Assembly: GCA_963669175.1 (NCBI GenBank)
Contig: OY769902.1
Span: 1,152,001 to 1,216,000, forward strand
Direction of reading: 5' to 3'
DNA from: a bacterium
Lineage (GTDB): Bacteria; Electryoneota; Electryoneia; Electryoneales; Electryoneaceae
Length of the DNA stretch: 64,000 bases
Under the pieces are notes generated by a model. That model saw only the letters and a list, made by a program, of their open reading frames with translations. It did no database searches and was not told the origin of the DNA. Below are positions 39,168 through 57,352 of the stretch, piece by piece; position 1 is the stretch's first letter, and each line of letters opens with the position of its first letter. Position numbers and translations under genes: made by a program.

Positions 39168-42100
39168 ATGTGCGGAAAATGGACATGTTCCCTGGCTTGC
39201 CTTCTCTTTCTATTGGCAGGTTCAGCAGGATTCCTTGGGTGTGAAGATGCTGTAGAGGAGCTTCTTCCATCGCTGGAAATTGAGGCCCCGGGTAATGGGG
39301 ACCATTGGGAGGCGGGCTTGGACAGCAGCGGGGTTATCCGTTGGCAATACTCCGAGTTTGCAGGCAGCGTTCATATCGATCTGTACCGCAATGATGTATA
39401 CGTTCAGACCATTGCAGATTCCGTAAACATTTCCGATACCATCCTGATTTGGACACCTCCGTTCAACCTTGAAGCCGGGCAGGGGTACCAGGTATTCCTG
39501 GAAGCTTATACCAACGCTGAAGTATCTGATTTGAGCGATGCGTTTCATATGGATGCCCCCAGAAATCCGCCCGCTATTGAAGTGACTTCACCGCGTGGCG
39601 GCACCAAGTGGGAAGTCGGGTTGGAAGATGACGCGTTGATTGAGTGGGAGTATCAGCTTGTTGAGGGACTGATCCGGATTGATTTGTGTCGTAGCGATAC
39701 CGTTGTCACCATGATCGCGGATAGTGTTGCGCTGGAGGACAGCAGCTACACCTGGACTGTTCCCCAGGCTACCGACCCCGGCAGCCAGTACCAGGTTTGC
39801 ATTACCAGCCTGACCGATTCCACTGTTTTTGATTTCAGCACCAATTTCCAGATCCAGGAATATGACAGCACACAATCACTGGAGATCGTCAGTCCTTCCG
39901 GCGGCGACCGTTGGATGGTTGGCCTGGTCAATGGCGCAACCGTCGAGTGGGAAAACCACCATGTAGATGGTACTGTTACCCTTGAGCTGCACAACGGCAA
40001 TGATTTTGTCGCCCTGATTGGGGATGAAATCGAAGCATCGGCCCTGATGTTCAGTTGGACCGTTCCGGAAGAGGTTGAGCCTGGAAACGGTTATCGGATC
40101 TATATCGAGTCCAACGACAACCCGGATATCAATCATACAGGTCACAACTTCCAGATTGAACCGTATGATGACACGCCCATGCTGGAAGTCACCAGCCCCG
40201 GGCAGGGCGATAGCTGGCAGGTTGGTGTTGAAGATGGCGCCCCGATCGAATGGGCCTATGCGAACGTAACCGGAACAATCAAGGTAGAACTGTACCTGCA
40301 TAACGATTTCGTGCAGACGATTCTTGATACTATCCCGGTGGATTCCGGCGGTTATAGCTGGACTGTTCCCGGCGATATCGAGCCGGGGCATGGGTATCGT
40401 GTGTACGTGGAAAGTCATGACAACCCGGATGTGAACAACCTTGGCAGCAACTTCGAGATTGAACCCTATGGAAGTACCAGTTCCATCGAAGTTACCGAAC
40501 CCGGTTCGGGAACACGCTGGCCCCAGGTGGAGCCTGATGCCGCTGTCATCGAATGGGTCTACGAAAACCTGAACGGAACTGTCAACATCGACCTGTATTT
40601 CGACGGTGAGTTTGTCCTGAATATCGCGGATGAGGTTGCGGTTGATGAGCTTACCTATGCCTGGACAGTGCCGTTGAGTGTCAGCCCGGATCGAGGCTAC
40701 CAAGTCTATATCGAGAGCAACGAGGATGAATACGTCTCCGATATGGGCCGTGAGTTCCGGATTGATCCGCCTGCGGATGAAATGAGCCTGGATGTCACTG
40801 AACCCGGTGGCGGAACACGCTGGATGATTGGAGAAGAGAATGGCGCGATCATTGAATGGGAATCGGAGAACCTTGAAGGCACACTTCGTCTGGACCTGTA
40901 CGACCGTGATGGTTTCGTCGCCGAAATCGCATCGGAAGTGGATGTGACTTCCGGTACTTATTTCTGGACTGTACCAGGTACAGTACCGCCGGACAACGGA
41001 TACACAGTATATGCCGAAAGCAACCTGTACGATTACGTCAACGATGAAAGCAACAGCTTCCGTATTGACCCACCGGAAGATCCCGCGACCCTGGAAATTG
41101 CCAGCCCGGGACAGGGCGATACCTGGATCATTGGCGAAGAAAACGGCGCAGTCATCGAGTGGACTTCTGAAAACCTGACCGGGACACTCAAGTTTGATCT
41201 TTACCGTGCGAACAGCTTTGTCGTGACGATTACCGATTGTGTGGCTGTGGAAGCGGGGAGCTTCACCTGGACCGTGCCGAACAGCGTGGATGATGCCAAC
41301 AATTACCATATCTATGCTGAAAGCAACGAGCTGGCCTACGTCAATTGTGAAAGCCGCAATTTCCGTATCGATCCCAACCCGAACCCGATGGAGATCGAGG
41401 TGACCACTCCCGGCCCGGGCGACCGCTGGACTGTCAACGAGCAGGACGGCGCGTTGATCGAGTGGGAATACTCGGGCTTTGAAGGCACGGTGACCATTGA
41501 CCTGTACCAGGATGATGTCTTCGTCATGAACATCGCTACCGCGGTGCAGGTTGCAGATCTGAGTTACACCTGGACTGTACCCACGGCAGCGGGCAGCGGG
41601 CAGCATTTTGCCGTGTACGTGGCAAGTGATACGGAACCGGATGTTCACGACTTCAGCCGTGAATTCCGTATCGATCCGGCCGACGAGGACTGGGAGATCG
41701 AAGTCACGGCTCCCGGCCAGGGCGACAGTTGGTTGGTTGGTGAAGAAGGGGCCATTACCTGGACCTACGCAAATGTAACCGGGACTATATCGATAGACCT
41801 GTATCTCCACAATGGGTATGTACGTGATATCGTGGATGGGGTAAATGTTGCCAACGGCAGTTATACCTGGACCATGCCATTGGAGGTAGAGCCCTCCAAC
41901 GGTTATCGCATTTACATCATATGTGATGACAACGCTGAAGTGGATGACCTTGGCAGCAACTTCACTGTGGTTGGGGATGATGAACCAGGCGAGCTGGAAG
42001 TTACCGGACCGGGTCAGGGCGATGAGTGGGTAGTTGGTGAGGATGGTCAGATTACCTGGACCGCGCTGAATGTGGACGGCACCATTCACCTCGAACTCTA

Positions 42101-43175
42101 CCTGCATAACAGCTACCAGATGGATATAGCCGATGGCATAGACGCGAATGCTGGCGCATACACCTGGATCATGCCGGAAGAGGTTGAACCCGGTAATGGC
42201 TATCGCATTTACATCGAATCCGATGACGATGCCGATGTGAATGATCTGGGCGATAACTTCACCGTGGTCGGTGGAAACGAACCAGGCGAGCTGGAGGTTA
42301 CCGGACCGGGTCAGGGCGATGAGTGGGTAGTTGGTGAGGATGGTCAGATTACCTGGACCGCATTGAATGTGGACGGCACCATTCACCTCGAACTCTACCT
42401 GCATAACAGCTATGAAATGGATATCGCCAGCGGTGTGAATGCCGATGCGGGATCGTATACCTGGATCATGCCGGAAGAGGTTGAACCCGGTAATGGCTAT
42501 CGCATTTACATCGAATCCGATGACGATGCCGATGTGAATGATCTGGGCGATAACTTCACCGTGGTCGGTGGATACGAACCGGGCGAGCTGGAGGTTACCG
42601 GACCGGGTCAGGGCGATGAGTGGGTAGTTGGTGAGGATGGTCAGATTACCTGGACCGCGCTGAATGTGGACGGCACCATTCACCTCGAACTCTACCTGCA
42701 TAACAGCTATGAAATGGATATCGCCAGCGGTGTGAATGCCGATGCGGGATCGTATACCTGGATCATGCCGGAAGAGGTTGAACCCGGCAACGGTTATCGT
42801 ATTTACATCGAATCCGATGACGATGCCGATGTGAATGACCTGGGTGATAACTTCACCGTGGTCGCGGGTGGTGGCGGTGGGCCGACCAGCATCGAGGTGA
42901 CCAGTCCTTCCAACAACGACCATTGGTCCATCGGCGGTACGTATACCATCGAATGGGAATCGGAAGACCCGGTCGGTACGGTGCGTATCGACCTGTACCA
43001 TATCAACACGTTCGAGATGAGCATCACCGATGATATTGACATGGTAAACGGGCAGTACCAGTGGACCATTCCCGAGAATGCCCCGACGGGGAATGGGTAT
43101 CGGATTTACATCGAAAGCAATGTTGATCCAGACGTCAACGACCAGAGCAGCAACTTCTGGATCGATGAAGAATAG
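39168..43175 (+). CDS. Surface lipoprotein with 13 tandem ~100-aa Ig-like (Kre9/GPI-anchored-family-like) repeats
   Basis: Lipobox FLGC; repeated P.GG..W..G....I.W...IDLY...YTWTVP...Y.IY...D.S..F. Confidence 0.8.
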   Translation: MCGKWTCSLACLLFLLAGSAGFLGCEDAVEELLPSLEIEAPGNGDHWEAGLDSSGVIRWQYSEFAGSVHIDLYRNDVYVQTIADSVNISDTILIWTPPFNLEAGQGYQVFLEAYTNAEVSDLSDAFHMDAPRNPPAIEVTSPRGGTKWEVGLEDDALIEWEYQLVEGLIRIDLCRSDTVVTMIADSVALEDSSYTWTVPQATDPGSQYQVCITSLTDSTVFDFSTNFQIQEYDSTQSLEIVSPSGGDRWMVGLVNGATVEWENHHVDGTVTLELHNGNDFVALIGDEIEASALMFSWTVPEEVEPGNGYRIYIESNDNPDINHTGHNFQIEPYDDTPMLEVTSPGQGDSWQVGVEDGAPIEWAYANVTGTIKVELYLHNDFVQTILDTIPVDSGGYSWTVPGDIEPGHGYRVYVESHDNPDVNNLGSNFEIEPYGSTSSIEVTEPGSGTRWPQVEPDAAVIEWVYENLNGTVNIDLYFDGEFVLNIADEVAVDELTYAWTVPLSVSPDRGYQVYIESNEDEYVSDMGREFRIDPPADEMSLDVTEPGGGTRWMIGEENGAIIEWESENLEGTLRLDLYDRDGFVAEIASEVDVTSGTYFWTVPGTVPPDNGYTVYAESNLYDYVNDESNSFRIDPPEDPATLEIASPGQGDTWIIGEENGAVIEWTSENLTGTLKFDLYRANSFVVTITDCVAVEAGSFTWTVPNSVDDANNYHIYAESNELAYVNCESRNFRIDPNPNPMEIEVTTPGPGDRWTVNEQDGALIEWEYSGFEGTVTIDLYQDDVFVMNIATAVQVADLSYTWTVPTAAGSGQHFAVYVASDTEPDVHDFSREFRIDPADEDWEIEVTAPGQGDSWLVGEEGAITWTYANVTGTISIDLYLHNGYVRDIVDGVNVANGSYTWTMPLEVEPSNGYRIYIICDDNAEVDDLGSNFTVVGDDEPGELEVTGPGQGDEWVVGEDGQITWTALNVDGTIHLELYLHNSYQMDIADGIDANAGAYTWIMPEEVEPGNGYRIYIESDDDADVNDLGDNFTVVGGNEPGELEVTGPGQGDEWVVGEDGQITWTALNVDGTIHLELYLHNSYEMDIASGVNADAGSYTWIMPEEVEPGNGYRIYIESDDDADVNDLGDNFTVVGGYEPGELEVTGPGQGDEWVVGEDGQITWTALNVDGTIHLELYLHNSYEMDIASGVNADAGSYTWIMPEEVEPGNGYRIYIESDDDADVNDLGDNFTVVAGGGGGPTSIEVTSPSNNDHWSIGGTYTIEWESEDPVGTVRIDLYHINTFEMSITDDIDMVNGQYQWTIPENAPTGNGYRIYIESNVDPDVNDQSSNFWIDEE
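41982..42865 (+). repeat. Three near-identical 297-bp intragenic tandem repeats
   Basis: Units start at 41982, 42279 and 42576. Confidence 0.9.
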
Positions 43176-43215
43176 TTGAAGGGGGGAGTGGGCAAAGTTG
43201 AAAACTGCGGAGAGC

Positions 43216-43460
43216 CTGGGTGGCCCAATCCGCAAGTGACAAATTCTCGATCACAACTGAACCTGGAATACTCTAAAGAAATCGCAAAACAGGACGAATC
43301 TGTGAGCGCATCGGTACAAGTCTGGTCCTGGGAGCTTCAACAGGAAGATTCAACCTTTTCCCGATGCGCTAATTAATGTTGATTGAATAAGAGATGTCGT
43401 GAGAGTATTCTTGCTGACTCCAAAGCTGAAGTTGCATCACCTGCGGATCGGGCCACCCAG
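43216..43460. repeat. Inverted pair of 24-bp repeats (family C)
   Basis: ctgggtggcccaatccgcaagtga 43216-43239 / tcacctgcggatcgggccacccag 43437-43460; single copies at 2827-2849 and 5173-5196. Confidence 0.65.
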
Positions 43461-43550
43461 CTTTCTTTACGTTTTTTACCTTTTTTACTTTCTTTACCTC
43501 TATCACTTACTATTAGGAAATATTTCCGGTAGGTTTTCAGTTGATAGTGG

Positions 43551-44381
43551 TTACTTTTTCTTGTCCTTTTTCGTTGTATCTTTTTGTTTATCTTTAGGTT
43601 TAAGGTCAGGATGATACTGCATCACCAGTTTCTGATATTGGACCACTGTACTACGTCCGAGTCCGGTAGTACGCACAATTTCCATCAGATTAAGTTCTTT
43701 GACCATCAGGAACTTGATGTTTTTGTAAGATCGCAAGTAACGACCCACCGCTTCAAGGGTATGCGTGGTCAAGCGAGCGATATCCGGTTCCGGATAGCCC
43801 TGTTCGTACAGGTCAATGATTGCGGCCTTGTGTGTGGGACGGCTTCCCTGGTCCAACATGATTCCTTTCGTCGGCAGGATGTCATCATGCGTTTCGTGAT
43901 ACTGTTGGATGTACTTGCCAATGGTCGTCAGCGACCGGTTCAACAACACACTCAATTCCGCGCCGCTTAATAACCCGCCTTGTTCGTACGCGCTTTTCAC
44001 CAACCGCGCCAGCACTGCAATATCCCTGTCGCGCTGTTTGCCCGCACCGTCTTTTCCATAGTGGCGACGAATACGATCAACCACATCTTCTTCAGTGACA
44101 AGCGGAAGAATGACGGTCTTCACCTCATAGTCTTCTACCCGTGTCCCATAGCTGGGCTTGTGGCACTGTGCACCTGTCGTACGCCACACAATACTGCCAC
44201 CGCTGCGTTGCTCGATATCCGGATAGAACTCACGGTGCAGTTGCATGATGTCATCCGCCACCATGGCCAAGACCTTGTGGCTGCCAAGAATCTTGTACTG
44301 CTCTTCCAACAACCGGATGATCGCAGTGCGAAAGTTCCGCTTCGGCAGGGATTCATAACGGTTCCGTACCTCAGTTTTCAT
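43551..44381 (-). CDS. DUF1670-like protein B
   Basis: AYEQGGLLS..ELS.LL; PTKG..D.G..PTHK..II.LY..G; THT..AV.RY; ATG 44381 with GGAGG RBS. Confidence 0.8.
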   Translation of the reverse strand: MKTEVRNRYESLPKRNFRTAIIRLLEEQYKILGSHKVLAMVADDIMQLHREFYPDIEQRSGGSIVWRTTGAQCHKPSYGTRVEDYEVKTVILPLVTEEDVVDRIRRHYGKDGAGKQRDRDIAVLARLVKSAYEQGGLLSGAELSVLLNRSLTTIGKYIQQYHETHDDILPTKGIMLDQGSRPTHKAAIIDLYEQGYPEPDIARLTTHTLEAVGRYLRSYKNIKFLMVKELNLMEIVRTTGLGRSTVVQYQKLVMQYHPDLKPKDKQKDTTKKDKKK

Positions 44382-45204
44382 GGACGCCTCCGCCACCTTG
44401 TCCCGCTCTTTTTTTTGAGGGATACTGTGCTTGCAACTGCTCCAGAAGTTCGACATAGCTTGTCGGCCAGTGATCACCCTGTTTGTATTTTGCAAACAGA
44501 TCCAGGTACTCACCCGTCAACCGTTCGCTCTGTTGAAGCAGACGGCTCAGGTCGGTCAGCTCGGTAATGTCATGGCTAAGCAGAAGCAACAAGCGTCCAA
44601 ACGTACTCACATAGCGCTTGATCGCAAACGCGCTGTGACGTGTCAGACGGATGATCTCATCATAGGTCCGGCCACCCAGGTACAAATCAACGATCCGTGC
44701 CTTGTGCGATAACCCACGCCCAATGTCATGGTCGTAGCCACGCGTATGCACCGTATTCCCGTCAGCAAGCAGCAACGCAATATCCTTGCGGATGGTCCGA
44801 TCTGAAACGTGCAGCAGACGACTCAGATCCTCCTGTGTCAGCAACCCACCCTGCTGGTACGTCTCTTCGGTTAGCCGAAGAATCCGTTGCTGACGAAGCG
44901 ATGAAGCGCCCAGTTCGCGCAGAACATCCAAGTCCTCAACACCGTCATCCAGTGTCAGTTCGACACGAATCAGGTCTTGTTCGCGTAAGGGACGACCGTG
45001 ACGAGCTTTCTTGGACGCACATAAAAAACGAAGCTTGCCAAGCGTTGACGGCATCGTACCGAACAAACAACGCTTGGCAAGCTCCAATATCCCCGTACTC
45101 GCAGCCGGTGAAAGCTCAAACTCGCGACGAAGCGAGTTCACAAACACCTGCTCCGGCGTCTTCTCCATACACCGGTCATACAGGCTCGTTGAAGTATGTA
45201 ACAT
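44371..45204 (-). CDS. DUF1670-like protein A
   Basis: TYQQGGLLTQEDL; TRG..HDIGRGLSHK..IV.LY; TRHS..AI.RY; ATG 45204 with GGAGG RBS. Confidence 0.8.
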   Translation of the reverse strand: MLHTSTSLYDRCMEKTPEQVFVNSLRREFELSPAASTGILELAKRCLFGTMPSTLGKLRFLCASKKARHGRPLREQDLIRVELTLDDGVEDLDVLRELGASSLRQQRILRLTEETYQQGGLLTQEDLSRLLHVSDRTIRKDIALLLADGNTVHTRGYDHDIGRGLSHKARIVDLYLGGRTYDEIIRLTRHSAFAIKRYVSTFGRLLLLLSHDITELTDLSRLLQQSERLTGEYLDLFAKYKQGDHWPTSYVELLEQLQAQYPSKKRAGQGGGGVHEN

Positions 45205-45303
45205 CTTGTCCTCCAGCATGTTACGCGATCGCTTCCGATTGCCAACCCGAATACAAAGGTCGCAAACAAGAAGCAAATCGCCAAACCTACCGGAAGTATT
45301 TCC

Positions 45304-48300
45304 TTATTTCAGGAGTACCATTCTACGGGTCAAGCTGACATTTTCTCCTTCCAATCGTACAAAATATGTCCCCGAGGCGACCGGCATACCCTGATCGTTA
45401 CATCCCTGCCACATGACCTGTTGTTGCCCCGCCTGTACAACGCCATCCACCAGTGTAGCTACTTTCCGTCCCAGTACATCATAGACCGCAAGGCTGATCT
45501 CGCCGGTATGGGGCGCGGAAAAGCGAAGTGTCGTCGCCGGGTTAAACGGGTTGGGATACGCGGAATGCAGTTCCCAGGTTGCTGGAAGTGTGTTCTCTGC
45601 CAGGGACGCAACCCGTTCATAATTGTCATTGTAGCGCATGGCATAGACATTGGCTTGCGTGGGTTCTTCGCCATCACCGCCACGATAGTCCAGCCAAGTC
45701 GCAAGGACACCGCCCTGACCATCGGAAGTGACAGAGGGTTCCTTCTGACGGTAGATCGCATTTGTCAAAACCATCCCATGTTCTACATAATCGGCAAGAG
45801 CAAGGGTGCCGTCAGACAGAATATGGGTGTAATACATGTCCACGTCACCGGGCATATAACTGTAAAAGCAGAATGTGATATACATGCCATTGTCGTCATC
45901 TTCACAGAAGCGTGGCGTGTATACTCCGGAATAGATGGACGTGTCAACCGGTGTGGGAATAACCACGCCTTCATTCGGGAAGAATATTGGCAGTCCGCTA
46001 TCATCAAATTTCTGGAATCGCAGGTTGTTGTCCTCGTCCCTGCCTGTCAGCCAGATCCAGCCATCCGACGTTGATCCCAGGTCCAGGTCAGTCCAGCCAT
46101 AGCTCATCCAGCCGGTATACACGCCATAGGTATCCCACTGACAAATGCCATCCATGTTCACACGTTGCGCCATAAGATCGGCCGGCCCACTTTCCGACCA
46201 GGATTGCAGCCACATGACCACGACGCCATCGTTGACCGCAGCCATACGAGCGCCAGGCATTCTGAGGTCTTCATCATATACGTTTAACGGATTTGGCCAC
46301 AGCGGATTGCCTTCGGTATCCAGGGCAAGGAGATGAAATCCACGGTTTTCCCGTTCGATATCTTCCTGCATGAACAGGATAAAAGTTTCGCCATCGGGCA
46401 TCACCAGGATCTGTTGCAGTTCCATTCCGGCTTGTTCCCGCTCGAAAGAAAAGCCTTCCGTTCCGTTCCAGAGTCGCTGCCCTTCAGTGGTGATGCGTTG
46501 AGCCTGGATTGTTCCGGTATTGTTCATATTCGTGTTGTTGAACACGTATACCACGACGGCATCACCGTTCGGCATCGGAGCAACTTTAACTTGGTCTGCT
46601 TCAAAGGGTTGCTGCAACGGATCAATCAGGACAATATCATCGTTCCAGGCAGCATTGCCGTCTTCATACATGCGCTGAATGTGCAACCTGTTCACAATAT
46701 TCGGATAGGGCTGATTGTAGGTAAATACGGAATAGACACCTCCTATGTGGTCAGGCGCTATTCCCAGCAATTCACCATACCACCCCGATTCGGCTTCCAG
46801 GTCCGGCAGGGACTGAGTCGAAACATGGTTACCGTTGTCCTCCCACAGGTATTCTCCCGTTTCCATATCCAGCCGTTGCAGTAAAGGCCGGAAGAAGGCC
46901 GAAGACAGGTAACGGCTGTCGGTCCAGCCGATAAAAGCATTTTCACCAGACAAAACAATATCAGGCGCGTAGACATCCCCATCGATCCCGGTATGCAGGG
47001 AGTGCAAATCATTGTAAGCAGGTTCGCCAGTCGTGAGATCCAGGGACTGGAACCGAACTCCACAAGCTGCGGGATACTGGTCACGTAACACCAGTTTTAC
47101 GGTTCCATCAGCCACAACAGGCTGATAGGAATCAGTAGTCAGAATATTTCGTCCATTGCCATAATCGGTGTCATCGTTCAACCACATCTCTTCACCGTTG
47201 GCGTTGATACGCTCGAGAAGAATCCGGTCGTCCAGATCAGCATCCACGCGATCCGTATGGATACCCACGACTACGCCTCCGTCACCATCGTACGCCAGGT
47301 GGAAATTAGCCGGGTTGATGAAAATGTCATTGAATAGTGTGATCCCGTTTCTGTCGTTGCCCCAGCATAGTTCGGCAACGCCGTCAGCATCCCTGACTTT
47401 TTGCACGACATTGAGCAGTGTCGGGCCGACCTCATCATGGATACGTGCTAGGAAAAACTCATTTTCTCCGCCCGGGATAAGGTCAAATTCGAAATAATGC
47501 GGGTACATGGAATCAATGGTCTCAGAAACAGGCACACCGCCATATTCCCATACGTTGCTGCCATCCGTATCGATATGTTGAGCGCGTATCTCCAGGTCCG
47601 CCATGTCCTTCCAGACTATGAACATTCCCCCCAGACCATCCAGGGTCATGTAGAAATGATAAGCGTACAGGTTTTCCGGGAATGAATAGACAATGGTTCC
47701 GGGCCACAACTGAACCCCGGTTTCATTCCACTTATGCGCGAAGATGGTTCGAGACTGGAAATCCATAGAGACGCTTAAGATGGAGCCATCGTCATCCAAT
47801 GCGACCTTTGCATTGCCTAGTGCGTTTTCCAAGGCATAGCCACTTGCGCCCCAGGTGTAATTCCCCTGGTTGTCGATGTACTGCACGTATGTCTGACTTG
47901 CGGCTTCCCAGGCGAACATGGCGCCGTCATCATTGGTGCCGGTCATCTGCAGGTCCAATCCGGGCCATTGAGTGGTGTCCTGGGTTACGATCAAGCCGTT
48001 ATCTTCCCACATGGGTTCGCCGTTGCTATTCAAACGCTGAACCACAAAATCCCATCGTCCCTGCTTGTGGACATCCCGCCGGAAATCACGCCAGCCAATC
48101 AACCAGTCACCGTTAGCGCATGCCTGGACAACGGGGTCTTGCTGGGCGGCGTGGAGGGTGGTAACCGCGATGCCATCTGCGTCCCATTGCGCTTCATCGC
48201 TGCTGTTGTATAGCTGCACAAATACGTTCTGGGATCCACCGCTGGCATCCGACCATGCTACCAGCCAGTATCCATCACCGTCAGCCGCTACGCCATGATG

Positions 48301-48441
48301 ATTCCACATGACATGATCGCCCTGACGCACAGCCACTCCATTCTCAGGTTCCCAGATGTTGAAACGTGCAAAAGCGAGCGAAGTAAAGACCGCGGGCAGC
48401 AGTAGTGAAAAAAGGATGACAATATGTAACCGTGAACGCAT
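45304..48441 (-). CDS. Large secreted repeat (propeller-like) protein with T9SS/FlgD CTD, array member 1
   Basis: Signal peptide, DG.GG...W.D.R and Q..D..G...W repeats, YPNPFN CTD; final Lys-stop supplied by the element. Confidence 0.85.
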   Translation of the reverse strand: MRSRLHIVILFSLLLPAVFTSLAFARFNIWEPENGVAVRQGDHVMWNHHGVAADGDGYWLVAWSDASGGSQNVFVQLYNSSDEAQWDADGIAVTTLHAAQQDPVVQACANGDWLIGWRDFRRDVHKQGRWDFVVQRLNSNGEPMWEDNGLIVTQDTTQWPGLDLQMTGTNDDGAMFAWEAASQTYVQYIDNQGNYTWGASGYALENALGNAKVALDDDGSILSVSMDFQSRTIFAHKWNETGVQLWPGTIVYSFPENLYAYHFYMTLDGLGGMFIVWKDMADLEIRAQHIDTDGSNVWEYGGVPVSETIDSMYPHYFEFDLIPGGENEFFLARIHDEVGPTLLNVVQKVRDADGVAELCWGNDRNGITLFNDIFINPANFHLAYDGDGGVVVGIHTDRVDADLDDRILLERINANGEEMWLNDDTDYGNGRNILTTDSYQPVVADGTVKLVLRDQYPAACGVRFQSLDLTTGEPAYNDLHSLHTGIDGDVYAPDIVLSGENAFIGWTDSRYLSSAFFRPLLQRLDMETGEYLWEDNGNHVSTQSLPDLEAESGWYGELLGIAPDHIGGVYSVFTYNQPYPNIVNRLHIQRMYEDGNAAWNDDIVLIDPLQQPFEADQVKVAPMPNGDAVVVYVFNNTNMNNTGTIQAQRITTEGQRLWNGTEGFSFEREQAGMELQQILVMPDGETFILFMQEDIERENRGFHLLALDTEGNPLWPNPLNVYDEDLRMPGARMAAVNDGVVVMWLQSWSESGPADLMAQRVNMDGICQWDTYGVYTGWMSYGWTDLDLGSTSDGWIWLTGRDEDNNLRFQKFDDSGLPIFFPNEGVVIPTPVDTSIYSGVYTPRFCEDDDNGMYITFCFYSYMPGDVDMYYTHILSDGTLALADYVEHGMVLTNAIYRQKEPSVTSDGQGGVLATWLDYRGGDGEEPTQANVYAMRYNDNYERVASLAENTLPATWELHSAYPNPFNPATTLRFSAPHTGEISLAVYDVLGRKVATLVDGVVQAGQQQVMWQGCNDQGMPVASGTYFVRLEGENVSLTRRMVLLK

Positions 48442-48636
48442 CTTCCGTGCCTCCTGTCTGGGTAACCAAGATACTGTTGTTTTGTTCGCTAGTGGACCAT
48501 ATCAGGTGCAATGGTCCACTAGTATTGCCTCGTTCTGTCATCCCCATGCAACAGGTTGTAATGCAGCGGGCTGTTGCGCAATAAGTTTAAAGGCAACAGG
48601 TTGTAACAGAATAGGCAATACGCTTATCCCAACGTT

Positions 48637-48718
48637 GCAGACTGTATCAGAATAGAAAATATTCTCATCCCAGCGAAGCAGACTGTATCAGAATAGAAAA
48701 TATTCTCATCCCAGCGAA
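48637..48718 (+). repeat. Perfect 41-bp tandem duplication
   Basis: gcagactgtatcagaatagaaaatattctcatcccagcgaa twice. Confidence 0.85.
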
Positions 48719-48872
48719 GGCTGGGATCCAGGCAAGTATCTACAAAATAACAATTTGGACACTTGAACGGCTCTCAATATACCGCGTTTCTTGACAACAC
48801 TTAACCTCTTGTAATATCGCAACATGACTGGATCCCAGCCTTCGCTGGGATGAGAGCATCAGTGATTCTGAG
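48686..48872. repeat. Inverted pair of ATCCCAGC-GAAG-GCTGGGAT hairpins (REP/MITE-like)
   Basis: ctcatcccagcgaaggctgggatccag / ctggatcccagccttcgctgggatgag. Confidence 0.7.
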
Positions 48873-49192: not shown

Positions 49193-52100
49193 TCACTTCA
49201 ATAATACAATTTTTTCTGTCAGATGTACACTGTTCCCGCTCAGTTTTACGAAGTAGGTTCCGGACGCTACCGGCATGCCTTTATCGCTGTGTCCCTGCCA
49301 GATCACCTGCTGCCGTCCCGCCTGAACCACACCATCGACAAGCGTCGCAACTTTACGTCCCAGCACATCATAGACTGCCAGGGTCACTTCGGACGTGCGT
49401 GGCGCGGTGAAACTCAGCGTGGTTGACGGGTTGAACGGGTTCGGATAGGCGCCATGCAGTTCCCAGGAAACCGGGTGCAGGTTTTCCGCGTTCCCATCCA
49501 CATGGAAAGGATCATTTGTGATTCGCATGGCGTAAATGTCATCCACCGGATCGTCTACCGGTTGTCCACGGAAGTCTGTCCAGGATGCCAGCACACCTCC
49601 CTCACCGTCCGATGTGACTGCCAGTTCACATTGCGTGAAGTGCATTTCGCTAAGGTAAGCGTCGCCCTGCTCGAAAATCTCCCCGGTAAAATTGCCGTGG
49701 GCGTCCATATGGCTGTATCCCAGATCCGGATCTGAACAGACGTGGTGATTGTGAACCGTGTACAAGATGTAAATTCCATTTTGACCATCGGTTACTATCT
49801 TGGAGTCGCTAAAGCTGATAACGCTTTCTTGTGTCTGCCCGGGAAGAACGATACCGCCTTCCGGTTCAAGTGAGGGTTCTCCTTCACTATCGAAAAGTTG
49901 ACAGAAAATGACATTCCTGTTGTATTCTTCCGGATAATCATACCAGGTCAGCCAGAAAGAATCGTCATCATTCAGCACGACTTCCGCCTCTTCCAGCCAG
50001 ACTTTGGCTTCCCTGATATCCATGATGATTCTGCCGGAGATTTCCCATTGTGCTTCTCCATCCATGCTGACAGATTGTCCCAGCAATTGCGTGTTGTCGT
50101 TGAGATGTGTCCAAAGCACCAGGATATCATTACTTCGCGGGATTACATGGGAAGCGATACACGTACGCATGTTGCCATTCACTATCTGCGATTCCCAAGC
50201 AGGTACACCGTTTGAATCAAGCAGTGTCATGTACACATCTTCCCCCAACGTATACATGATGACAAGCTCGCCATTTTCCAGAACAGTCATGCTGCGCAGG
50301 ATGCAATTCTGTCCGGAAGCGGTAACGCCCGCATCTCCCCAGAGCAAATTTCCGGAATCGTCCACACAATTGCAGGTGATTGCGCCGGAGTATGACTCCC
50401 ACACCATGTAGTAATGGCCGTTGGGACCGGTTTGGAAAAGCTGGTATGGGTTTGATGTTCCATCAGGAAGCGCGTACTCGTCTGGAGTGATTAAAATCGA
50501 GTTTTCCCAAACCCGTTCAAGGTTGGCGTTATAACGGTCAAGGTTCAGGGTCCGCCCCATTCCATTCACCATGGAAGACAACAGGACCATTCCCCCTTCA
50601 TTATCCGGAACGGGATAAACTCGATCCAGATCGACCGCCCCTCTGGCCGGGTCACCCGGCTCCAGTAAAACGCCATTCTGTTCAAGGAGCGGTTCCCCAG
50701 TATCAAAATCCAGCCGTTGTGCATACAGGTCATGATAATCTCGATAGTCATGCCACAGGATAAATACATTGTTATTTGAGCAGACGATTTTAGATTCTTT
50801 TCCGTCGCCAATCATTCCGGTAACCAGGGGAAACGGCTCTTCAAACAACTCATTGCCGTTTTCAGCATCGAATGCACTGAATTGAACACAAGCGAAATTA
50901 TTTCCTTCTGTGTAGATATCTGGCCAGAAAACCCGAACCTGGTCATCTTGGATGAAAGAAGCAAACGACAACCAACAGGGTAAGCCGTCGATTTCAATCT
51001 TACCGGGAACACCATCATTCCAGGCGTAATCACCATTTTCATCAAAACGCATCACGAAGATTTCAGAACCCCTGCCTTTTCCGGCAGCATCGGAAGTGGT
51101 CAGGATAAACCCGCCTTCATCGTCATGACTCAGCCTGATACAACGATAGGTCAGGGTTTCATCAGGGAAAAGGACAGTGCCCTGTACCTCTTCCGGATCC
51201 GGATTTTCGTTGCTGACAGCATCGAAAAAACGCATGCGCAGTTCACGAATCGTAGAATCGCCCATGACACTCCAGGCAAGGATACAAGTGCCGTCATGGT
51301 GGTGCATGATCCGGTACATGTCGTCGTTGTATATGTAATTGCAATGGCCGGTCAGGTTCACCGGTTCATCCCACAACAGAGCCCCATCAACGGAAACATA
51401 TTGACCGTAAATGCATCTGCGATCGTAGTCCAGCCAGGTAACAAAGACGTTTTCCTGGTGATCGGTTATTATTCTGATATCGTTGGAGTATTCATCCAAA
51501 TCTATAGGCGCTCCCTCATTCCAGACGGGATTTCCTGATGAATCAAAATGTTGCAGGGAAACAGCAGTCCCGAAAGCAACGGTAAATGATCCGTCTTCCA
51601 ACACGGCAGGGTGAATAAACCTGCAACTATCCTGTAATACGATTCCACCTTCTTCCCAGAGAGGATTGCCGTTGCTGTCCAGCTTTTGCACAAGCCCAGT
51701 ATGGTCATCTTTCCAGAACACCAGGGTTGTATGATCCGGGAGAGGATTCAAGGAACACAGTACAGATTCCACTTCCGGTTCCTGACTCAGCAAAACCCCA
51801 TTATCGGTCCATTGCAACTGACCATTCGATGAAATCTTCTGGATGGCAAAATCAGCTCTACTATCATGGGGATAGCCGCGATAATCCTCCCATGCGACCA
51901 GCCAGTTGCCATCACCGGCGTATACGACGAGCGGTTGCTGCTGGGGTGTGGGTAGGTTGGTAATCTGCAAGCCACCCGCTTCCCACTGCTCCTGGTTGTT
52001 CGAGTCGTATAATTGAACATAGATGTTCTGAGCGCCGCTTTTTCCATCCGACCATGCCGCGCACCAGTATTCCTCGCCGTCATTGGCAACACCATCGCCT

Positions 52101-52243: not shown

Positions 52244-52410
52244 GTCCGACTCCTTCGGTTGAAAATCATTAAAGTGACTGATGAAAACAATCAATACGTT
52301 GTGAATCGCCCGACCTTCCCCGCCATAACAGGAGGGAAGGTCGGGTAACAATTGTCTGACATCTATTTACTATTAGGAAATATTTCCGGTAGGTTTTCAG
52401 TTGATAGTGG

Positions 52411-53241
52411 TTACTTTTTCTTGTCCTTTTTCGTTGTATCTTTTTGTTTATCTTTAGGTTTAAGGTCAGGATGATACTGCATCACCAGTTTCTGATATTG
52501 GACCACTGTACTACGTCCGAGTCCGGTAGTACGCACAATTTCCATCAGATTAAGTTCTTTGACCATCAGGAACTTGATGTTTTTGTAAGATCGCAAGTAA
52601 CGACCCACCGCTTCAAGGGTATGCGTGGTCAAGCGAGCGATATCCGGTTCCGGATAGCCCTGTTCGTACAGGTCAATGATTGCGGCCTTGTGTGTGGGAC
52701 GGCTCCCCTGGTCCAACATGATTCCTTTCGTCGGCAGGATGTCATCATGCGTTTCGTGATACTGTTGGATGTACTTGCCAATGGTCGTCAGCGACCGGTT
52801 CAACAACACACTCAATTCCGCGCCGCTTAATAACCCGCCTTGTTCGTACGCGCTTTTCACCAACCGCGCCAGCACTGCAATATCCCTGTCGCGCTGTTTG
52901 CACGCACCGTCTTTTCCATAGTGGCGACGAATACGATCAACCACATCTTCTTCTGTGACAAGCGGAAGAATGACGGTCTTCACCTCATAGTCTTCTACCC
53001 GTGTCCCATAGCTGGGCTTGTGGCACTGTGCACCTGTCGTACGCCACACAATACTGCCACCGCTGCGTTGCTCGATATCCGGATAGAACTCACGGTGCAG
53101 TTGCATGATGTCATCCGCCACCATGGCCAAGACCTTGTGGCTGCCAAGAATCTTGTACTGCTCTTCCAACAACCGGATGATCGCAGTGCGAAAGTTCCGC
53201 TTCGGCAGGGATTCATAACGGTTCCGTACCTCAGTTTTCAT
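52411..53241 (-). CDS. DUF1670-like protein B
   Basis: Same as 43551-44381 except GAGK>GACK. Confidence 0.8.
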   Translation of the reverse strand: MKTEVRNRYESLPKRNFRTAIIRLLEEQYKILGSHKVLAMVADDIMQLHREFYPDIEQRSGGSIVWRTTGAQCHKPSYGTRVEDYEVKTVILPLVTEEDVVDRIRRHYGKDGACKQRDRDIAVLARLVKSAYEQGGLLSGAELSVLLNRSLTTIGKYIQQYHETHDDILPTKGIMLDQGSRPTHKAAIIDLYEQGYPEPDIARLTTHTLEAVGRYLRSYKNIKFLMVKELNLMEIVRTTGLGRSTVVQYQKLVMQYHPDLKPKDKQKDTTKKDKKK

Positions 53242-54064
53242 GGACGCCTCCGCCACCTTGTCCCGCTCTTTTTTTTGAGGGATACTGTGCTTGCAACTGC
53301 TCCAGAAGTTCGACATAGCTTGTCGGCCAGTGATCACCCTGTTTGTATTTTGCAAACAGATCCAGGTACTCACCCGTCAACCGTTCGCTCTGTTGAAGCA
53401 GACGGCTCAGGTCGGTCAGCTCGGTAATGTCATGGCTAAGCAGAAGCAACAAGCGTCCAAACGTACTCACATAGCGCTTGATCGCAAACGCGCTGTGACG
53501 TGTCAGACGGATGATCTCATCATAGGTCCGGCCACCCAGGTACAAATCAACGATCCGTGCCTTGTGCGATAACCCACGCCCAATGTCATGGTCGTAGCCA
53601 CGCGTATGCACCGTATTCCCGTCAGCAAGCAGCAACGCAATATCCTTGCGGATGGTCCGATCTGAAACGTGCAGCAGACGACTCAGATCCTCCTGTGTCA
53701 GCAACCCACCCTGCTGGTACGTCTCTTCGGTTAGCCGAAGAATCCGTTGCTGACGAAGCGATGAAGCGCCCAGTTCGCGCAGAACATCCAAGTCCTCAAC
53801 ACCGTCATCCAGTGTCAGTTCGACACGAATCAGGTCTTGTTCGCGTAAGGGACGACCGTGACGAGCTTTCTTGGACGCACATAAAAAACGAAGCTTGCCA
53901 AGCGTTGACGGCATCGTACCGAACAAACAACGCTTGGCAAGCTCCAATATCCCCGTACTCGCAGCCGGTGAAAGCTCAAACTCGCGACGAAGCGAGTTCA
54001 CAAACACCTGCTCCGGCGTCTTCTCCATACACCGGTCATACAGGCTCGTTGAAGTATGTAACAT
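53231..54064 (-). CDS. DUF1670-like protein A
   Basis: Identical translation to copy 1. Confidence 0.8.
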   Translation of the reverse strand: MLHTSTSLYDRCMEKTPEQVFVNSLRREFELSPAASTGILELAKRCLFGTMPSTLGKLRFLCASKKARHGRPLREQDLIRVELTLDDGVEDLDVLRELGASSLRQQRILRLTEETYQQGGLLTQEDLSRLLHVSDRTIRKDIALLLADGNTVHTRGYDHDIGRGLSHKARIVDLYLGGRTYDEIIRLTRHSAFAIKRYVSTFGRLLLLLSHDITELTDLSRLLQQSERLTGEYLDLFAKYKQGDHWPTSYVELLEQLQAQYPSKKRAGQGGGGVHEN

Positions 54065-54163
54065 CTTGTCCTCCAGCATGTTACGCGATCGCTTCCGATT
54101 GCCAACCCGAATACAAAGGTCGCAAACAAGAAGCAAATCGCCAAACCTACCGGAAGTATTTCC

Positions 54164-57100
54164 TTATTTCAACAATACCATCTTGCTGGTCAGGTTGACA
54201 CCATCGCTTTCAAGGCGTACAAAATAAGTTCCCGACGCTACCGGCATCCCCTGGTCGCTGTGCCCCTGCCAGATCACCTGCTGCCGTCCCGCCTGAACCA
54301 CACCATCGACAAGCGTCGCAACCTTACGTCCCAGTACATCATAGACCGACAGGGTCACTTCGGACGTGCGTGGCGCGGTGAAACTCAATGTGGTTGACGG
54401 GTTGAACGGGTTGGGATAGGCGCCATGCAGTTCCCAGGAAACCGGGTGCAGGTTTTCACGGGGTTCGTTGGCGCCGTATGGGTATTCATAGATGCGCATG
54501 GCATAAACATCATCCCCCTCATCTTCGATATTCATGCCACGGTAGTCGGTCCAGGAAACCAGCGCGCCTCCTTCGCCATCCGGAATCGCAAAAAGCTCTT
54601 CCTGTACGAACATCGCATCGGTCAGGATCAGGCCGCCCTCCTCGTAGTACGGGTCGAAAAGATCACCGTCCGCATTGATATGCGAGAAGCCAAGATTGCT
54701 GTAATCACAATCTGAAAGAATCTGGTAAAACACAAAGAAACCGTTGTTCCCATCCGGCACAGTATAAAGTGTATTGTATTCCTTGACAACATCGTTGTAC
54801 GCTGTTGGCAGTAAAATCCCATGCTCCACATCGTACAGCGGTTCTCCCTGGGCGTTGAATTTCTGATAACGCGGGCTTCTGTATCGTTCCTCATCCTGTC
54901 GGTCCAGCCAGGCAATCCAGAAAGTGTTATCCTCATTGATCACAACGGTTTCATCAATAAAAACGGGTAAAGCATTCATACAGGAAATGATTTCACGGCC
55001 ATTGGTGTCCCAGAGAATAGAGCCGTCGGCAGCATCAACCAACTGGCCGTAAAGGCACATGCGGTCTTCCGTGAGCCACAATACAAGAATATCGTCACCC
55101 AGTTGACGAACGACAGGCGCATAGGATCGTGGCATCATCCCGTCAGTTACCTGCGCACGTGGAGTTTCCCAGATCGCTTCGCCTTCCTCGTCCAGGAGGG
55201 TCAGGTAAACCAGATCCCTGTTCTGGAAAAGAACACCATAATTGTTGTTGTCCAGCAGCACAGCGCCCTTCAGAACGTAACTTTCCGCGGTCAGACTGCT
55301 TCCATCCTCGCCCCACAGCAGCTCACCAGTCTGGCTGATACGGTTGCAGGCGACAACACCGTTCCCACGACGCACCCAGGAGACATAGTAACAGCCATTT
55401 GAGCCGCGAAGGAACTGATATTTGTTTTGGGTTTTTGAACGGAAGAACGTCTGCTCGCTGGTTGTCAGGCAGGTAGGGGAGTCCCAGACCGGTTCCAGCT
55501 CGCTGTCGTAGGTCTGGATAAATACTTCATAGGGGTCGCCATAACCTCCATCTCGACGCAGGGTAAGCAGTGCGAAGCCACCATCCTCCGTGCCAAGCGC
55601 CTGGAAATTATTCATTCCCCAGGCCACTCCTTCATAGGAAATAGCCAACGGTACGCCATGATCCTCAAACAGGGTTTCGCCAGTCTGGATGTCAAGTTTC
55701 TGGAAATACACATCAGACGAGTCTCGAAAATCTACCCACCCGATCAGGACATCATCCTGGGATTTTAGAACCTGGGAGAGCCTTCCGTTGTTCATAATAC
55801 CGCTAACCAGGGGATAGGGCTGTTCAAAAACCGATTCCCCGGAAGCCAACTCGAGCTGTTGGAATTGAACACCAATCCCATCACCGGAAGAATACACTCC
55901 CGGCCAGAAAAGGCGCACATAGTCGTCAAGTTCGAAAAGATCAAAAGCGTATGGGCAGGGAAGACCATCAATTTCAAACTGTACCGGGCTGCCATCGTTC
56001 CAGAGGCTGACGCCCTGATCACTGAAACGCATGGCCAGGATTGCGCTACCTGAATACTTGCCGTAGGAATTCGAAGTGGCGAGTATGAAACCATCTTCGC
56101 CATCCGGGAAAAGCCTCACACAGTAAAACACCATGTTTTCGTCGGGGAAAACTCTGAACTGGCAGATATCATCCTGCTCTTCCTGGTCTGAAGAGTAATC
56201 AAACAGTCTCATCTGGAGGTTATAGCCATCATCGTTTGCCTGTGGCCATGCCAGGGCGCAGACCCCGTCATGGAGATGGCATAACCGGAAGAAATCATCA
56301 TTGGAAATGTAGTTGCACGGTGCAGAGAGCTGGACACATTCTTCCCACAACGGTTCACCTTCAGCACTGATATATTGCCCGAAAATACCATCGCGCTCTT
56401 CACAGAGCCAGACCAGGCAATACCCGTTCTGGTCATCCTTTACCAGCTCCATATCCGTTGAATTCATCTCCTCTTCAGGGCAAAGCGCGATGGGTTGGCC
56501 GTCGTTCCATTGTGCTTCACCATTCCCATCATACAATTGGATCTCAACAGGTGTGCCCGTTGCGATCATAAAAGTACCATCATCATTCACGATAGCATTG
56601 ATGGCTTCTCTGTATTCTGTCACAGCTAACGGCTCATCCCAACACGGATTGCCGTCATGGTCAAACTTTTCGATATAGTTTCCCGTAACAGACTCCCAGA
56701 CAACGAGAGTAGCTTGATCCGGCATCGGTAGAAACGTATTTAAAAACGTCCAGGACACACCATCCGGGTTCAGCAAAACTCCGTTTTCCTGCCACAAAGC
56801 TTCGCCTTCTGATGACAATCGTTGAAGCGCGAAATTGATCAATGATGCATTCCCATTATTCCGGTACTCCTCCCATGCCACCAGCCATTCACCATCACCG
56901 GCATAACGGATCATGGGTTGTTGCTGTGGGGTGGGCAAATCGGTGAGTTGTATACCGCCTTCCGTCCACTGCTGCTCGTTGGCGGAGTTGTATAGCTGGA
57001 CATACACATTTTGAGCGCCCTCTTTTCCGTCCGACCAGGCAGCCAGCCAGGAGCCGGAATCGTCTGTGGCAGCTCCGCCGCCTGTCCAGGTAAAATGGTT

Positions 57101-57226
57101 GCCCTGACGGACCATAACACCATCTTCGGGCGCCCAGGCTTTGAACTGGGCATTGGCCGCAAAACAAACCAGGAGCAATGTCAACACAACGAGGGAGCAA
57201 ACTGTACGCTTTTTCAAGTAAACCAT
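54164..57226 (-). CDS. Array member 3, T9SS/FlgD CTD protein
   Basis: Same architecture; final Lys-stop supplied by the element. Confidence 0.85.
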   Translation of the reverse strand: MVYLKKRTVCSLVVLTLLLVCFAANAQFKAWAPEDGVMVRQGNHFTWTGGGAATDDSGSWLAAWSDGKEGAQNVYVQLYNSANEQQWTEGGIQLTDLPTPQQQPMIRYAGDGEWLVAWEEYRNNGNASLINFALQRLSSEGEALWQENGVLLNPDGVSWTFLNTFLPMPDQATLVVWESVTGNYIEKFDHDGNPCWDEPLAVTEYREAINAIVNDDGTFMIATGTPVEIQLYDGNGEAQWNDGQPIALCPEEEMNSTDMELVKDDQNGYCLVWLCEERDGIFGQYISAEGEPLWEECVQLSAPCNYISNDDFFRLCHLHDGVCALAWPQANDDGYNLQMRLFDYSSDQEEQDDICQFRVFPDENMVFYCVRLFPDGEDGFILATSNSYGKYSGSAILAMRFSDQGVSLWNDGSPVQFEIDGLPCPYAFDLFELDDYVRLFWPGVYSSGDGIGVQFQQLELASGESVFEQPYPLVSGIMNNGRLSQVLKSQDDVLIGWVDFRDSSDVYFQKLDIQTGETLFEDHGVPLAISYEGVAWGMNNFQALGTEDGGFALLTLRRDGGYGDPYEVFIQTYDSELEPVWDSPTCLTTSEQTFFRSKTQNKYQFLRGSNGCYYVSWVRRGNGVVACNRISQTGELLWGEDGSSLTAESYVLKGAVLLDNNNYGVLFQNRDLVYLTLLDEEGEAIWETPRAQVTDGMMPRSYAPVVRQLGDDILVLWLTEDRMCLYGQLVDAADGSILWDTNGREIISCMNALPVFIDETVVINEDNTFWIAWLDRQDEERYRSPRYQKFNAQGEPLYDVEHGILLPTAYNDVVKEYNTLYTVPDGNNGFFVFYQILSDCDYSNLGFSHINADGDLFDPYYEEGGLILTDAMFVQEELFAIPDGEGGALVSWTDYRGMNIEDEGDDVYAMRIYEYPYGANEPRENLHPVSWELHGAYPNPFNPSTTLSFTAPRTSEVTLSVYDVLGRKVATLVDGVVQAGRQQVIWQGHSDQGMPVASGTYFVRLESDGVNLTSKMVLLK

Positions 57227-57352
57227 AACCGACTCCTTCCCTGTCTGAACAAAGACAGAGTGGCTTGATGAATAAAAGACAATCGTGTCTTCTTATCCAG
57301 AATTTCTTCTAAATGTAAGAAACTCAGGGGTGTTGTCAATTGTAACGGGTAG

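Follow-up and report, generated by a model that had tools for sequence, protein, structure and literature searches.

The window analysed here, a stretch of 64,000 nt from a bacterial genome of 5.45 Mb assembled as a single contig (OY769902.1, assembly GCA_963669175.1; source genome G000 in the following), harbours on its minus strand a tandem array of six paralogous genes (45304-63999) whose products carry the C-terminal domain (CTD) that acts as sorting signal in the type IX secretion system (T9SS). Two of the six genes are occupied, within their last sense codon, by copies of a 1799-nt element which combines terminal inverted repeats with two open reading frames (ORFs), ORF1 and ORF2, for proteins of the DUF1670 family (PF07900). 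Coordinates are those of the window and are collected in Table 1; labels with L and P designate foreign loci and proteins, respectively. The five complete genes of the array code for proteins of approximately 1020-1060 aa. The array genes match FlgD_ig and Por_Secre_tail, one of them in addition weakly GH43, and the CTD genes of the window score 26.3-30.4 bits with PF18962 against a cut-off of 27, with the host of copy 1 just under it.

The element and its junctions with CTD genes

The left junctions read, on the minus strand and with a slash at the element boundary, CTG AA/ATAAGG in copy 1 and TTG AA/ATAAGG in copy 2, and the right junctions ...CCTAATAGT/AA G TGA and ...CCTAATAGT/AA A TAG, respectively. 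The initial bases of the left repeat, A-TAA, finish the Lys codon and provide a new stop (45304-45306 in copy 1); both host ORFs end AAA TAA, of which the element contributes the last A and the TAA, and the original third base and stop of the hosts have been moved 1.8 kb downstream. A previous reading of the same DNA, the original prediction, had claimed that removal of copy 1 joins tcactt (43503-43508) to caggag (45310-) as CTG AAG TGA on the minus strand, that removal of copy 2 joins ctattt (52363-52368) to caacaa (54170-) as TTG AAA TAG and that these joints resemble the unoccupied paralogue ends TTG AAG TGA (49193) and CTG AAA TAG followed by ATGT (60508). All of these bases were found as claimed when checked, including the ATGT beyond the displaced TAG of host gene 2, which is the same as after the paralogue end at 60508, and two more unoccupied ends were found (57353 and 63718). 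Its further claim that the element's AAA TAA restores the end of the host protein and displaces the old Lys-stop end agrees with the host ORFs, and the approximately 2 bp which it had described as common to both junctions could be refined to a genuine duplication that comprises bases 1 and 2 of the last codon.

A Logan contig of 1803 nt covers exactly 43507-45309, that is copy 1 with both dinucleotides. The terminal inverted repeats are 25 nt long and imperfect, with 92% complementarity and a GGAA-N4-TTCC-GGT core, and the terminal arms are kept in 57 other non-redundant elements; in copy 1, three extra element bases (43509-43511) lie outside the right repeat. ORF1 starts about 104 nt inside the element and overlaps ORF2 by 11 nt, with a GGAGG ahead of the ORF2 ATG; the two genes are translationally coupled, and this two-ORF layout is kept across 26 elements. 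A programmed frameshift between ORF1 and ORF2, which a run of eight A near the ORF1 end had brought up, was rejected because the relative frame varies among the 26 elements (overlaps of 4 to 14 nt, +1 or -1). When the element was scanned for promoters and terminators, no excess over shuffles was seen.

Table 1. Positions of the element copies, their host genes and the unoccupied paralogue ends within the window
Feature	Position	Strand	Remarks
Element copy 1	43509..45307	-	1799 nt; stretch common to both copies, ends from junction comparison
Left terminal inverted repeat, copy 1	45283..45307	-	92% complementary to right arm
Leader, copy 1	45210..45297	-	left-repeat bases 11-22 (45286-45297) predicted to pair with the ORF1 Shine-Dalgarno region (about 45210-45220)
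ORF1, copy 1	44371..45204	-	277 aa, DUF1670; PF07900 E 2.3e-45; start picked by aligning 14 homologues
ORF2, copy 1	43551..44381	-	276 aa, DUF1670; PF07900 E 1.4e-48; identical 276-aa protein P0003 in database
Right terminal inverted repeat, copy 1	43512..43536	-	25 nt
Left duplication copy, element copy 1	45308..45309	-	AA on minus; bases 1-2 of the host's last Lys codon
Right duplication copy (43507-08), displaced third base and original TGA, host gene 1	43503..43508	-	junction reading
Host gene 1	45304..48441	-	1045 aa, T9SS CTD, stop now inside element; PF18962 residues 962-1042, 26.3 bits, just under cut-off 27; custom CTD profile matches too
Element copy 2	52369..54167	-	1799 nt; stretch common to both copies
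ORF1, copy 2	53231..54064	-	offset +8860 from copy 1
ORF2, copy 2	52411..53241	-	ORF list
Left duplication copy, element copy 2	54168..54169	-	junction reading
Right duplication copy (52367-68), displaced third base and original TAG, host gene 2	52363..52368	-	junction reading
Host gene 2	54164..57226	-	1020 aa, T9SS CTD; PF18962, 29.9 bits
Unoccupied paralogue end TTG AAG TGA	49193..49201	-	
Unoccupied paralogue end CTG AAA TAA	57353..57361	-	
Unoccupied paralogue end CTG AAA TAG	60508..60516	-	followed by ATGT
Unoccupied paralogue end CTG AAG TAA	63718..63726	-	

Genome-wide, G000 contains seven copies at 99.3-100% identity, one copy at approximately 70% and one fragment of 155 nt. All eight full copies show the same orientation and the same junction form, a hydrophobic codon followed by AA/ATAAGG.../AA, a purine and the rest of the stop-terminated end: the codon before AA is CTG, TTA, CTG, GTC, TTG, TTA and CTA in the near-identical copies and GTG in the diverged one, and on the right side AA is in each case followed by G or A and TGA or TAG. 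The seven near-identical copies lie behind ORFs with classic CTD tails, ...YPNPFN...SG.YF...K.(I/V/L)(L)(L)K, and the diverged copy follows an ORF with a terminal CTD as well. A custom CTD profile, run on the 13,066 stop-to-stop ORFs of G000 of at least 100 aa, detected 335 CTD ORFs, 328 of which have the domain within 3 aa of the C-terminus; 254 of these end in Lys and 61 in Arg. All 150 scored PF18962 matches in G000 are above the cut-off, and the T9SS translocon SprA (TIGR04189), the only component searched, is present with 799 bits against a cut-off of 200.

As the DUF1670 genes are always downstream of and co-oriented with CTD genes, they might be regarded as a conserved, immobile two-gene partner of these genes which was spread by co-duplication. 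This is hardly conceivable, as the near-identical copies sit behind hosts that are unrelated outside the CTD and only 72-87% alike in the CTD regions themselves, terminal inverted repeats and a 2-bp duplication are present, paralogues in the same array are unoccupied and the family has a patchy occurrence, PF07900 being found in three of the 79 genomes of the source phylum, G000 included (2 of 51 at a completeness of at least 90%).

Occurrence, duplicated dinucleotide and target motif

A search with ORF2 in 90% clusters gave 1040 matches at E <= 0.001 among 2657 candidates, and the 120 matches listed show 64-100% identity to the query and derive mostly from contigs of about 1-5 kb; a profile search in clusters of 50% identity yielded 931 of them at E <= 0.001, of which 489 remain at E <= 1e-10 and 62 at E <= 1e-30. 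The foreign set consists of 28 loci from a genome collection, with metagenome-assembled genomes (MAGs) labelled Ignavibacteriaceae, Bacteroidetes/Bacteroidota, candidate division KSB1, Neomarinimicrobiota, Melioribacteraceae, Caldithrix, Lentisphaeria and Fibrobacteres, and of 80 metagenome loci (kept from 104 relatives). Both ends are present at 26 and 52 loci, respectively, which makes up the 78 complete foreign copies; in the genome collection, L016 has the right end only and L037 is a degraded remnant, such a remnant having been found in the Fibrobacteres MAG, and the other metagenome loci show the left end only (5), the right end only (17) or neither (6). At loci with at least 30 aa of upstream ORF, to which the CTD test was restricted, 22 of 22 elements of the genome collection (by profile match) and 36 of 38 metagenome elements follow a CTD, 58 of 60 in both sets. 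The 16 aa visible upstream of L011 are CTD-like, and L012 and L033 are almost without flank. A second complete chromosome, G079, carries seven full copies, all at CTD ends and with identities of approximately 100% (six copies) and 92% (one copy). The family is patchy within the source phylum, where ORF2 was found in 2 of 41 relatives, many of them fragmented MAGs in which repeats are often unassembled, and present in several phyla of T9SS-bearing bacteria. The archaeal control genome, Methanosarcina acetivorans, matches the DUF1670 family too, and a tblastn search that covered plasmids gave no match.

The flanking dinucleotide is identical on both sides in 77 of the 78 complete foreign copies (73 AA, 2 AG and 2 CG), namely in 25 of 26 copies of the genome collection and in all 52 of the metagenomes (50 AA, 2 CG), as it is in 8 of 8 copies of G000. 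As AG or CG appears at targets which end in Arg, such as GTA AG/element/AG A TAA at L027, TTG AG/element/AG G TAG at L036 and the CGA and CGT codons of L110 and L111 with CG on both sides, the 2 bp are a real target duplication, and since the dinucleotide is duplicated with the target, the insertion point lies after the second base of the last sense codon. Among the unpaired right ends, AG occurs at three and CA at one. Targets are Lys codons (AAR), sometimes Arg codons (AGR or CGN), and the initial base of the element substitutes the third base of the codon, an A that is synonymous for Lys or Arg in all 72 stop-followed sites. The restored codon is followed by a stop at 72 of the 75 readable foreign sites, with L032, L153 and L109 as the misses. 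Because the element starts with A-TAA, or with A-TAG in the sublineage of L110 and L111, codon completion and stop come together and leave the host protein as it was.

The logo of 70 unique rebuilt targets amounts to 22.8 bits over positions -24 to +5 and consists of T at -11, -8, -5 and -2, which fall on the second position of codons in the last hydrophobic strand, A at -15 and -14 (A-rich Lys or Arg codons), AA at 0/+1, R at +2, T at +3, A at +4 and R at +5. When G000 was scanned with a matrix derived exclusively from foreign targets (23 in number), 88 sites reached at least 20 bits, 86 of them CTD ends, and 187 sites at least 16 bits, 153 of them CTD ends; as foreign targets alone pick CTD ends, direct reading of a degenerate DNA motif of approximately 25-30 bp could explain most of the specificity. 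The core AAR-stop occurs at 13,974 sites in G000, of which 254 (1.8%) are CTD ends, and against this core alone the location of 8 of 8 copies at CTD ends is far beyond chance.

That the element lands at random and only the copies at harmless CTD ends survive selection would be in line with the few off-target copies that exist and with the enrichment of a looser motif, NTN-NTN-NTN-AAR-stop, at CTD ends (181 of its 460 sites in G000, 39%). Untargeted insertion is nevertheless very improbable, given that the same nucleotide position and orientation recur in the eight own copies and in 58 of the 60 assessable foreign ones, that the copies are nearly identical and therefore recent, and that only one of the 86 full copies examined (L032) is located away from an ORF end, although such sites would be equally harmless.

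Decay products are found at the same position. Solo left-end pieces of 18-32 nt directly follow CTD Lys codons, as at G000:C1:800634 (plus strand; 18 nt exact), G000:C1:2946988 (plus strand) and L162:1501-1552 (in G079), and a solo right end, a 24-nt piece at L161:1501-1531, follows a truncated CTD with the old stop and terminator still behind it. At L018 and L031, the right junction is immediately followed by left-end-like remnants, as would be expected if an element had re-inserted into the Lys-stop that an older copy regenerates.

A 13-nt motif, TAG-T(A/G)TCA(T/A)A(T/C)GA, was observed at the stop of some CTD genes, right after the last Lys or Arg codon and with diverging sequences beyond, at L019 (minus, near 1913), L022:4961, L085:3383, L090:2139, L091:1926, L092:1813, L108:2193, L112:2232, L115:3454, L122:1778 and L125:1511. 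The element occupies ten of these targets, and the remaining one is a CTD gene without it; in G000 the motif occurs once, not after a CTD gene. It may represent a conserved 3' signal, or else belong to a second element with the same target, as its end or footprint.

Nature of the element and its DUF1670 proteins

The element shows the generic traits of an insertion sequence (IS), as it is short with terminal inverted repeats, is flanked by a 2-bp target duplication and occurs in near-identical copies at unrelated loci. It is most probably an IS-like, site-specific mobile element of a family outside the known IS families, for which the 3' ends of CTD genes constitute a multicopy safe harbour and which repairs the codon and stop that it splits. 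The two DUF1670 proteins, with their multiple helix-turn-helix (HTH) units, probably form a hetero-oligomer which binds the element ends and the target and which would carry out or recruit breakage and joining with a 2-bp stagger. The target would be chosen by direct reading of the degenerate DNA motif imposed by the last CTD strand, the Lys codon and the stop, and purifying selection would then clear the rarer off-target insertions.

Safe-harbour targeting of the multicopy CTD 3' end was already at the centre of the original prediction and is supported, with 328 terminal-CTD ORFs in G000 and fixed-orientation insertion at the CTD Lys-stop in the own and foreign copies counted above; the logo of the unique targets across homologues likewise has the pattern that it had foreseen. 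The insertion had also been called phenotypically silent, which could be shown for the sequence of the protein only, the native 3' flank being displaced by 1.8 kb. Copies at random sites were named as what would speak against such targeting; the copies lie overwhelmingly at CTD ends, with a few atypical sites, L032, L144, L090, L109, L153 and a fragment in G000 (G000:C1:2071188). Empty alleles were to be sought in reads or related genomes. No occupied site could be paired with an empty counterpart, and a search of the same-genus genome G001 with the flank of copy 2 found nothing.

These atypical sites are part of what weighs against the interpretation as a targeted mobile element. L032 has AA on both sides, but at a non-stop site and with no CTD in the locus, L144 lies behind an ORF that has no CTD but still ends in Lys-stop, at L090 only the last approximately 13 residues, after an unrelated ORF, are CTD-like, and at L109, where three more codons follow, and at L153 the restored codon is not followed by a stop. 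The fragment G000:C1:2071034-2071190 (L009), a diverged left end of 155 nt with approximately 78% identity behind a non-CTD ORF with the end ...AMNK-stop, is what is left of an older off-target insertion, which had likewise hit a Lys-stop. Part of the CTD enrichment derives from the short motif, because 39% of the loose-motif sites are CTD ends in any case, and the linear matrix does not fully explain the specificity, since two of the seven occupied G000 sites score low with it (-5.2 and 3.9 bits); either the recognized features are non-additive, or a shorter core is recognized and selection does the rest. At L033, the sole mismatch of the dinucleotide, a left-hand CG faces a right-hand AG, both of which read Arg, and the flank at the contig start is only 5 nt long. 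Mobility as such is read from the pattern of the copies, and empty alleles, circle junctions and excision products were not seen in the Logan contigs of four runs.

Those contigs contain a joint of position 43488 to 45290 (one contig in each of two runs, one sample) which skips 1801 nt, the length of the element plus one duplication copy. The joint is 20 nt off the predicted empty site, to which it does not correspond, and has only 22 letters on its shorter side at a likeness of at least 90.

On the side of the proteins, the search for a known enzyme is the other counterweight. PF07900 is matched by ORF1 with 155 bits and by ORF2 with 166 bits (cut-off 25), the two being paralogous (hhalign probability 98%, 29% identity), and the only other Pfam matches at E <= 0.1 are to weak HTH families (HTH_23, HTH_28, HTH_29 and the resolvase HTH family HTH_7), with no known transposase or recombinase catalytic domain. 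NCBIfam gave no match to a transposase model, the best being 12.8 bits to the HTH part of an IS21 model with a cut-off of 160. DDE_3 is absent from the Pfam matches of ORF1 and ORF2 and, at E <= 0.01 or 0.001, from longer relatives, in which no catalytic domain was found at these thresholds; a DEDD transposase has no Pfam or NCBIfam match. Profile and sequence searches of the PDB gave nothing relevant, and Foldseek against the PDB gave nothing at E <= 0.001 with models of middling confidence (predicted local distance difference test, pLDDT, 68.9 and 69.5). The fold searches mostly cover residues 94-275: VIA-align has its best Z of 6.5 to HTH domains only, with the N-terminal 110 residues barely covered, and also shows the winged-helix domain of topoisomerase VI-A (Z 6.0, residues 113-174); gamma-delta resolvase is listed by the fold searches only via its HTH, with no sequence match to resolvases. 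A Phage_integrase domain has no sequence match and is not among the listed fold matches of the models (pLDDT about 69), and for the N-terminal 115 residues of ORF2 the Protein Atlas gave no usable match.

In the AlphaFold models themselves, two helices and a long beta-hairpin precede three HTH or winged-helix units. Fused forms occur, such as the single 535-aa frame of ORF1 plus ORF2 at L018:3194-4801 and the proteins P0153, P0155, P0162 and P0167 of 930-952 aa with three DUF1670 modules; longer relatives have two to three modules, or approximately 200 N-terminal residues without a known domain. P0104, to which one source gives the name GIY-YIG nuclease, shows DUF1670 and HTH only with Pfam, and this candidate was rejected. 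Complex prediction for ORF1 and ORF2 reached 0.33 compared to 0.00 for the best of three controls, which lends weak support to an interaction (own alignments), as 58 of the 80 solved complexes and also 2 of the 110 mismatched pairs pass the mark used, only 7 of those 80 but both of the passing mismatches at a score of 0.60 or under; the runs agree in at least 58% of contacts, with a partner pLDDT of at least 64. In 74 diverse members with 23-47% identity to ORF2, H184 and Y215 are invariant and G62, L92, R126, A131, L138, P170, G173, D177, G179, K185, H207 and Y249 are conserved to at least 90%, several of the conserved residues being located in a conserved loop of low model confidence.

The same specificity could be achieved by conservative site-specific recombination with a 2-bp crossover, as by serine recombinases, in which a circle with one dinucleotide copy would recombine with a matching target; what looks like a duplication would in that case be the core common to both, with the orientation determined by its asymmetry. 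The strict identity of exactly 2 bp in all but one of the complete copies is in agreement with such a core, as are the left element end A-TAA-GG, which resembles the right target half R-TRR like core-type sites do, and the weak HTH_7 matches. The dinucleotide moreover follows sublineages (CG in L110 and L111, G as the second base on both sides of L036 and L033), an observation that counts against targeted transposition to the extent that it would also fit a crossover core. We consider a crossover unlikely, as no resolvase catalytic domain was detected by Pfam (E <= 0.1), nor by fold search with its bare coverage of the N-terminal 110 residues, terminal inverted repeats are typical of transposons and the four dinucleotides among related elements (AA, AG, CG and, at one right end, CA) fit more easily with a staggered cut and repair.

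Both proteins look like arrays of HTH and winged-helix units without a recognized catalytic fold, and the element might accordingly be non-autonomous, with DUF1670 only binding DNA and a recombinase or nuclease encoded elsewhere that cuts and joins. This is rather improbable in view of the same compact two-gene unit in MAGs labelled Ignavibacteriaceae, Bacteroidetes/Bacteroidota, KSB1, Neomarinimicrobiota, Caldithrix and Lentisphaeria, of homologues that, among the matches listed, reside mostly on contigs of 1-5 kb, and of the lack of any other sequence in G000 with the terminal repeats of the element; the conservation of H184, Y215, R126, D177, K185, H207 and Y249 also seems to be more than DNA binding usually needs. 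For the targeted mobile element, the DUF1670 proteins would themselves catalyse the movement, as no other genes are present in a unit whose behaviour in many phyla is that of an autonomous element, as no other element of G000 has the repeats and as conserved polar residues are present. Whether they represent a new class of HTH-array transposase or recombinase, without a DDE, DEDD, HUH, serine or tyrosine recombinase fold and with paired or fused modules that read the DNA periodicity imposed by a protein (hydrophobic strand, Lys, stop), can be put forward tentatively, somewhat short of an even chance. If so, D177, H184, K185, H207, Y215 and Y249 (ORF2 numbering) would be active-site candidates of a compact, orientation-specific and codon-precise integration system with a 2-bp footprint.

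Elsewhere in the window, a 41-nt unit in the spacer between two paralogues of the array occurs as three tandem repeats at 48597-48719 and, inverted, at 48822-48892. On the plus strand, 39168-43175 is a 1335-aa ORF of approximately 100-aa units with repeats of 297-303 nt which are up to 82% alike; the ORF on the opposite strand that shadows it (39876..43235) is probably no gene.

Leader fold-back and relation to known systems

The leader of the window copy folds with -47 kcal/mol (z = -4.65), and RNAalifold predicts the same 11 pairs for 58 non-redundant leaders, with compensatory changes at two positions (A-U in 32 versus U-A in 17, and U-A in 27 versus A-U in 14), one invariant U-G pair and many G-U pairs. 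Across the alignment 95.2% of cells are paired compared to 89.2 +/- 0.8 in shuffles, and 33 cells are changed on both sides compared to 14.6 +/- 2.4, neither value being reached in any of 500 shuffles, while controls with slid partners have 36-64% of cells paired; such covariation counts can be inflated by sequence relatedness. Co-evolving protein-binding repeats are the alternative to pairing at the RNA level, which is favoured because wobble pairs argue for RNA. With Rfam, nothing rose above chance level (E 0.15 and 0.33, far below gathering scores). Every copy is located directly behind a co-directional host gene, with only the rest of the left repeat between the new stop and the leader. 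A read-through transcript of the host gene would carry the left repeat, which would hide the ribosome-binding site of ORF1 and keep its translation off, so that the predicted fold-back may block ORF1 translation from host-gene read-through. In IS10, fold-back inhibition shields translation of the transposase from outside transcripts. As in IS10, an element end would pair with the translation start region of the transposase gene in incoming transcripts; unlike in IS10, the pairing is here known from covariation and energy, and the outside transcript would in every copy be that of the targeted host gene.

For DUF1670, a Pfam family without known function that comprises 931 clusters at 50% identity (E <= 0.001), mobility is a likely role. 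The findings indicate that the DNA behind a conserved protein sorting signal can become a multicopy landing pad for a mobile element, which offers hundreds of sites in a genome, and the unaltered host protein makes this a cleaner safe-harbour solution than that of most known IS. Should the two small proteins suffice for insertion, they would become candidates for a new type of integration enzyme that is compact and orientation-specific. For practical work it is relevant that the elements break short-read assemblies at T9SS cargo genes, and their genes are not to be annotated as regulators. The family is apparently undescribed, as no published description of a DUF1670/PF07900 element family or of CTD-end targeting was found in the literature covered, with ISfinder outside the search.

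Transposon Tn7 inserts via TnsD at attTn7, downstream of the stop of glmS, a single-copy essential gene, with a 5-bp duplication and the need for TnsABC plus TnsD. Both systems use a conserved 3' coding end as landing mark in one orientation and leave the host protein intact, which is the same safe-harbour logic; here, in contrast, insertion takes place inside the last sense codon, in a gene family with hundreds of members, with a 2-bp duplication and with two DUF1670 genes within 1.8 kb. Integrases of phages and genomic islands target the 3' ends of tRNA or tmRNA genes and restore them. The present element equally brings a replacement for the displaced part of the gene, yet only four bases (A-TAA) are replaced, the end is protein-coding and no tyrosine integrase domain was found with Pfam. 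With the IS630/Tc1-mariner group, the element shares the 2-bp duplication, terminal inverted repeats and the weak matches to HTH_23, HTH_28 and HTH_29, whereas no DDE_3 was found, AA, AG or CG is duplicated instead of TA and the target context extends over approximately 30 bp. Target-specific IS are exemplified, in the parts of the literature considered, by the IS1202 family at dif/pdif sites and by IS110/IS1111, guided by seekRNA (PMC10132070, PMC11187229). As far as these sources describe them, they resemble the present element in their fixed orientation and position at a recurring site, several using multicopy sites, and differ in that they encode DDE or DEDD transposases. IS110 and IS1111 have, according to the same sources, a long non-coding region for the guide RNA, whereas the approximately 100 nt of left non-coding sequence of the DUF1670 element are predicted to pair with the ribosome-binding site of ORF1 and have no Rfam match.

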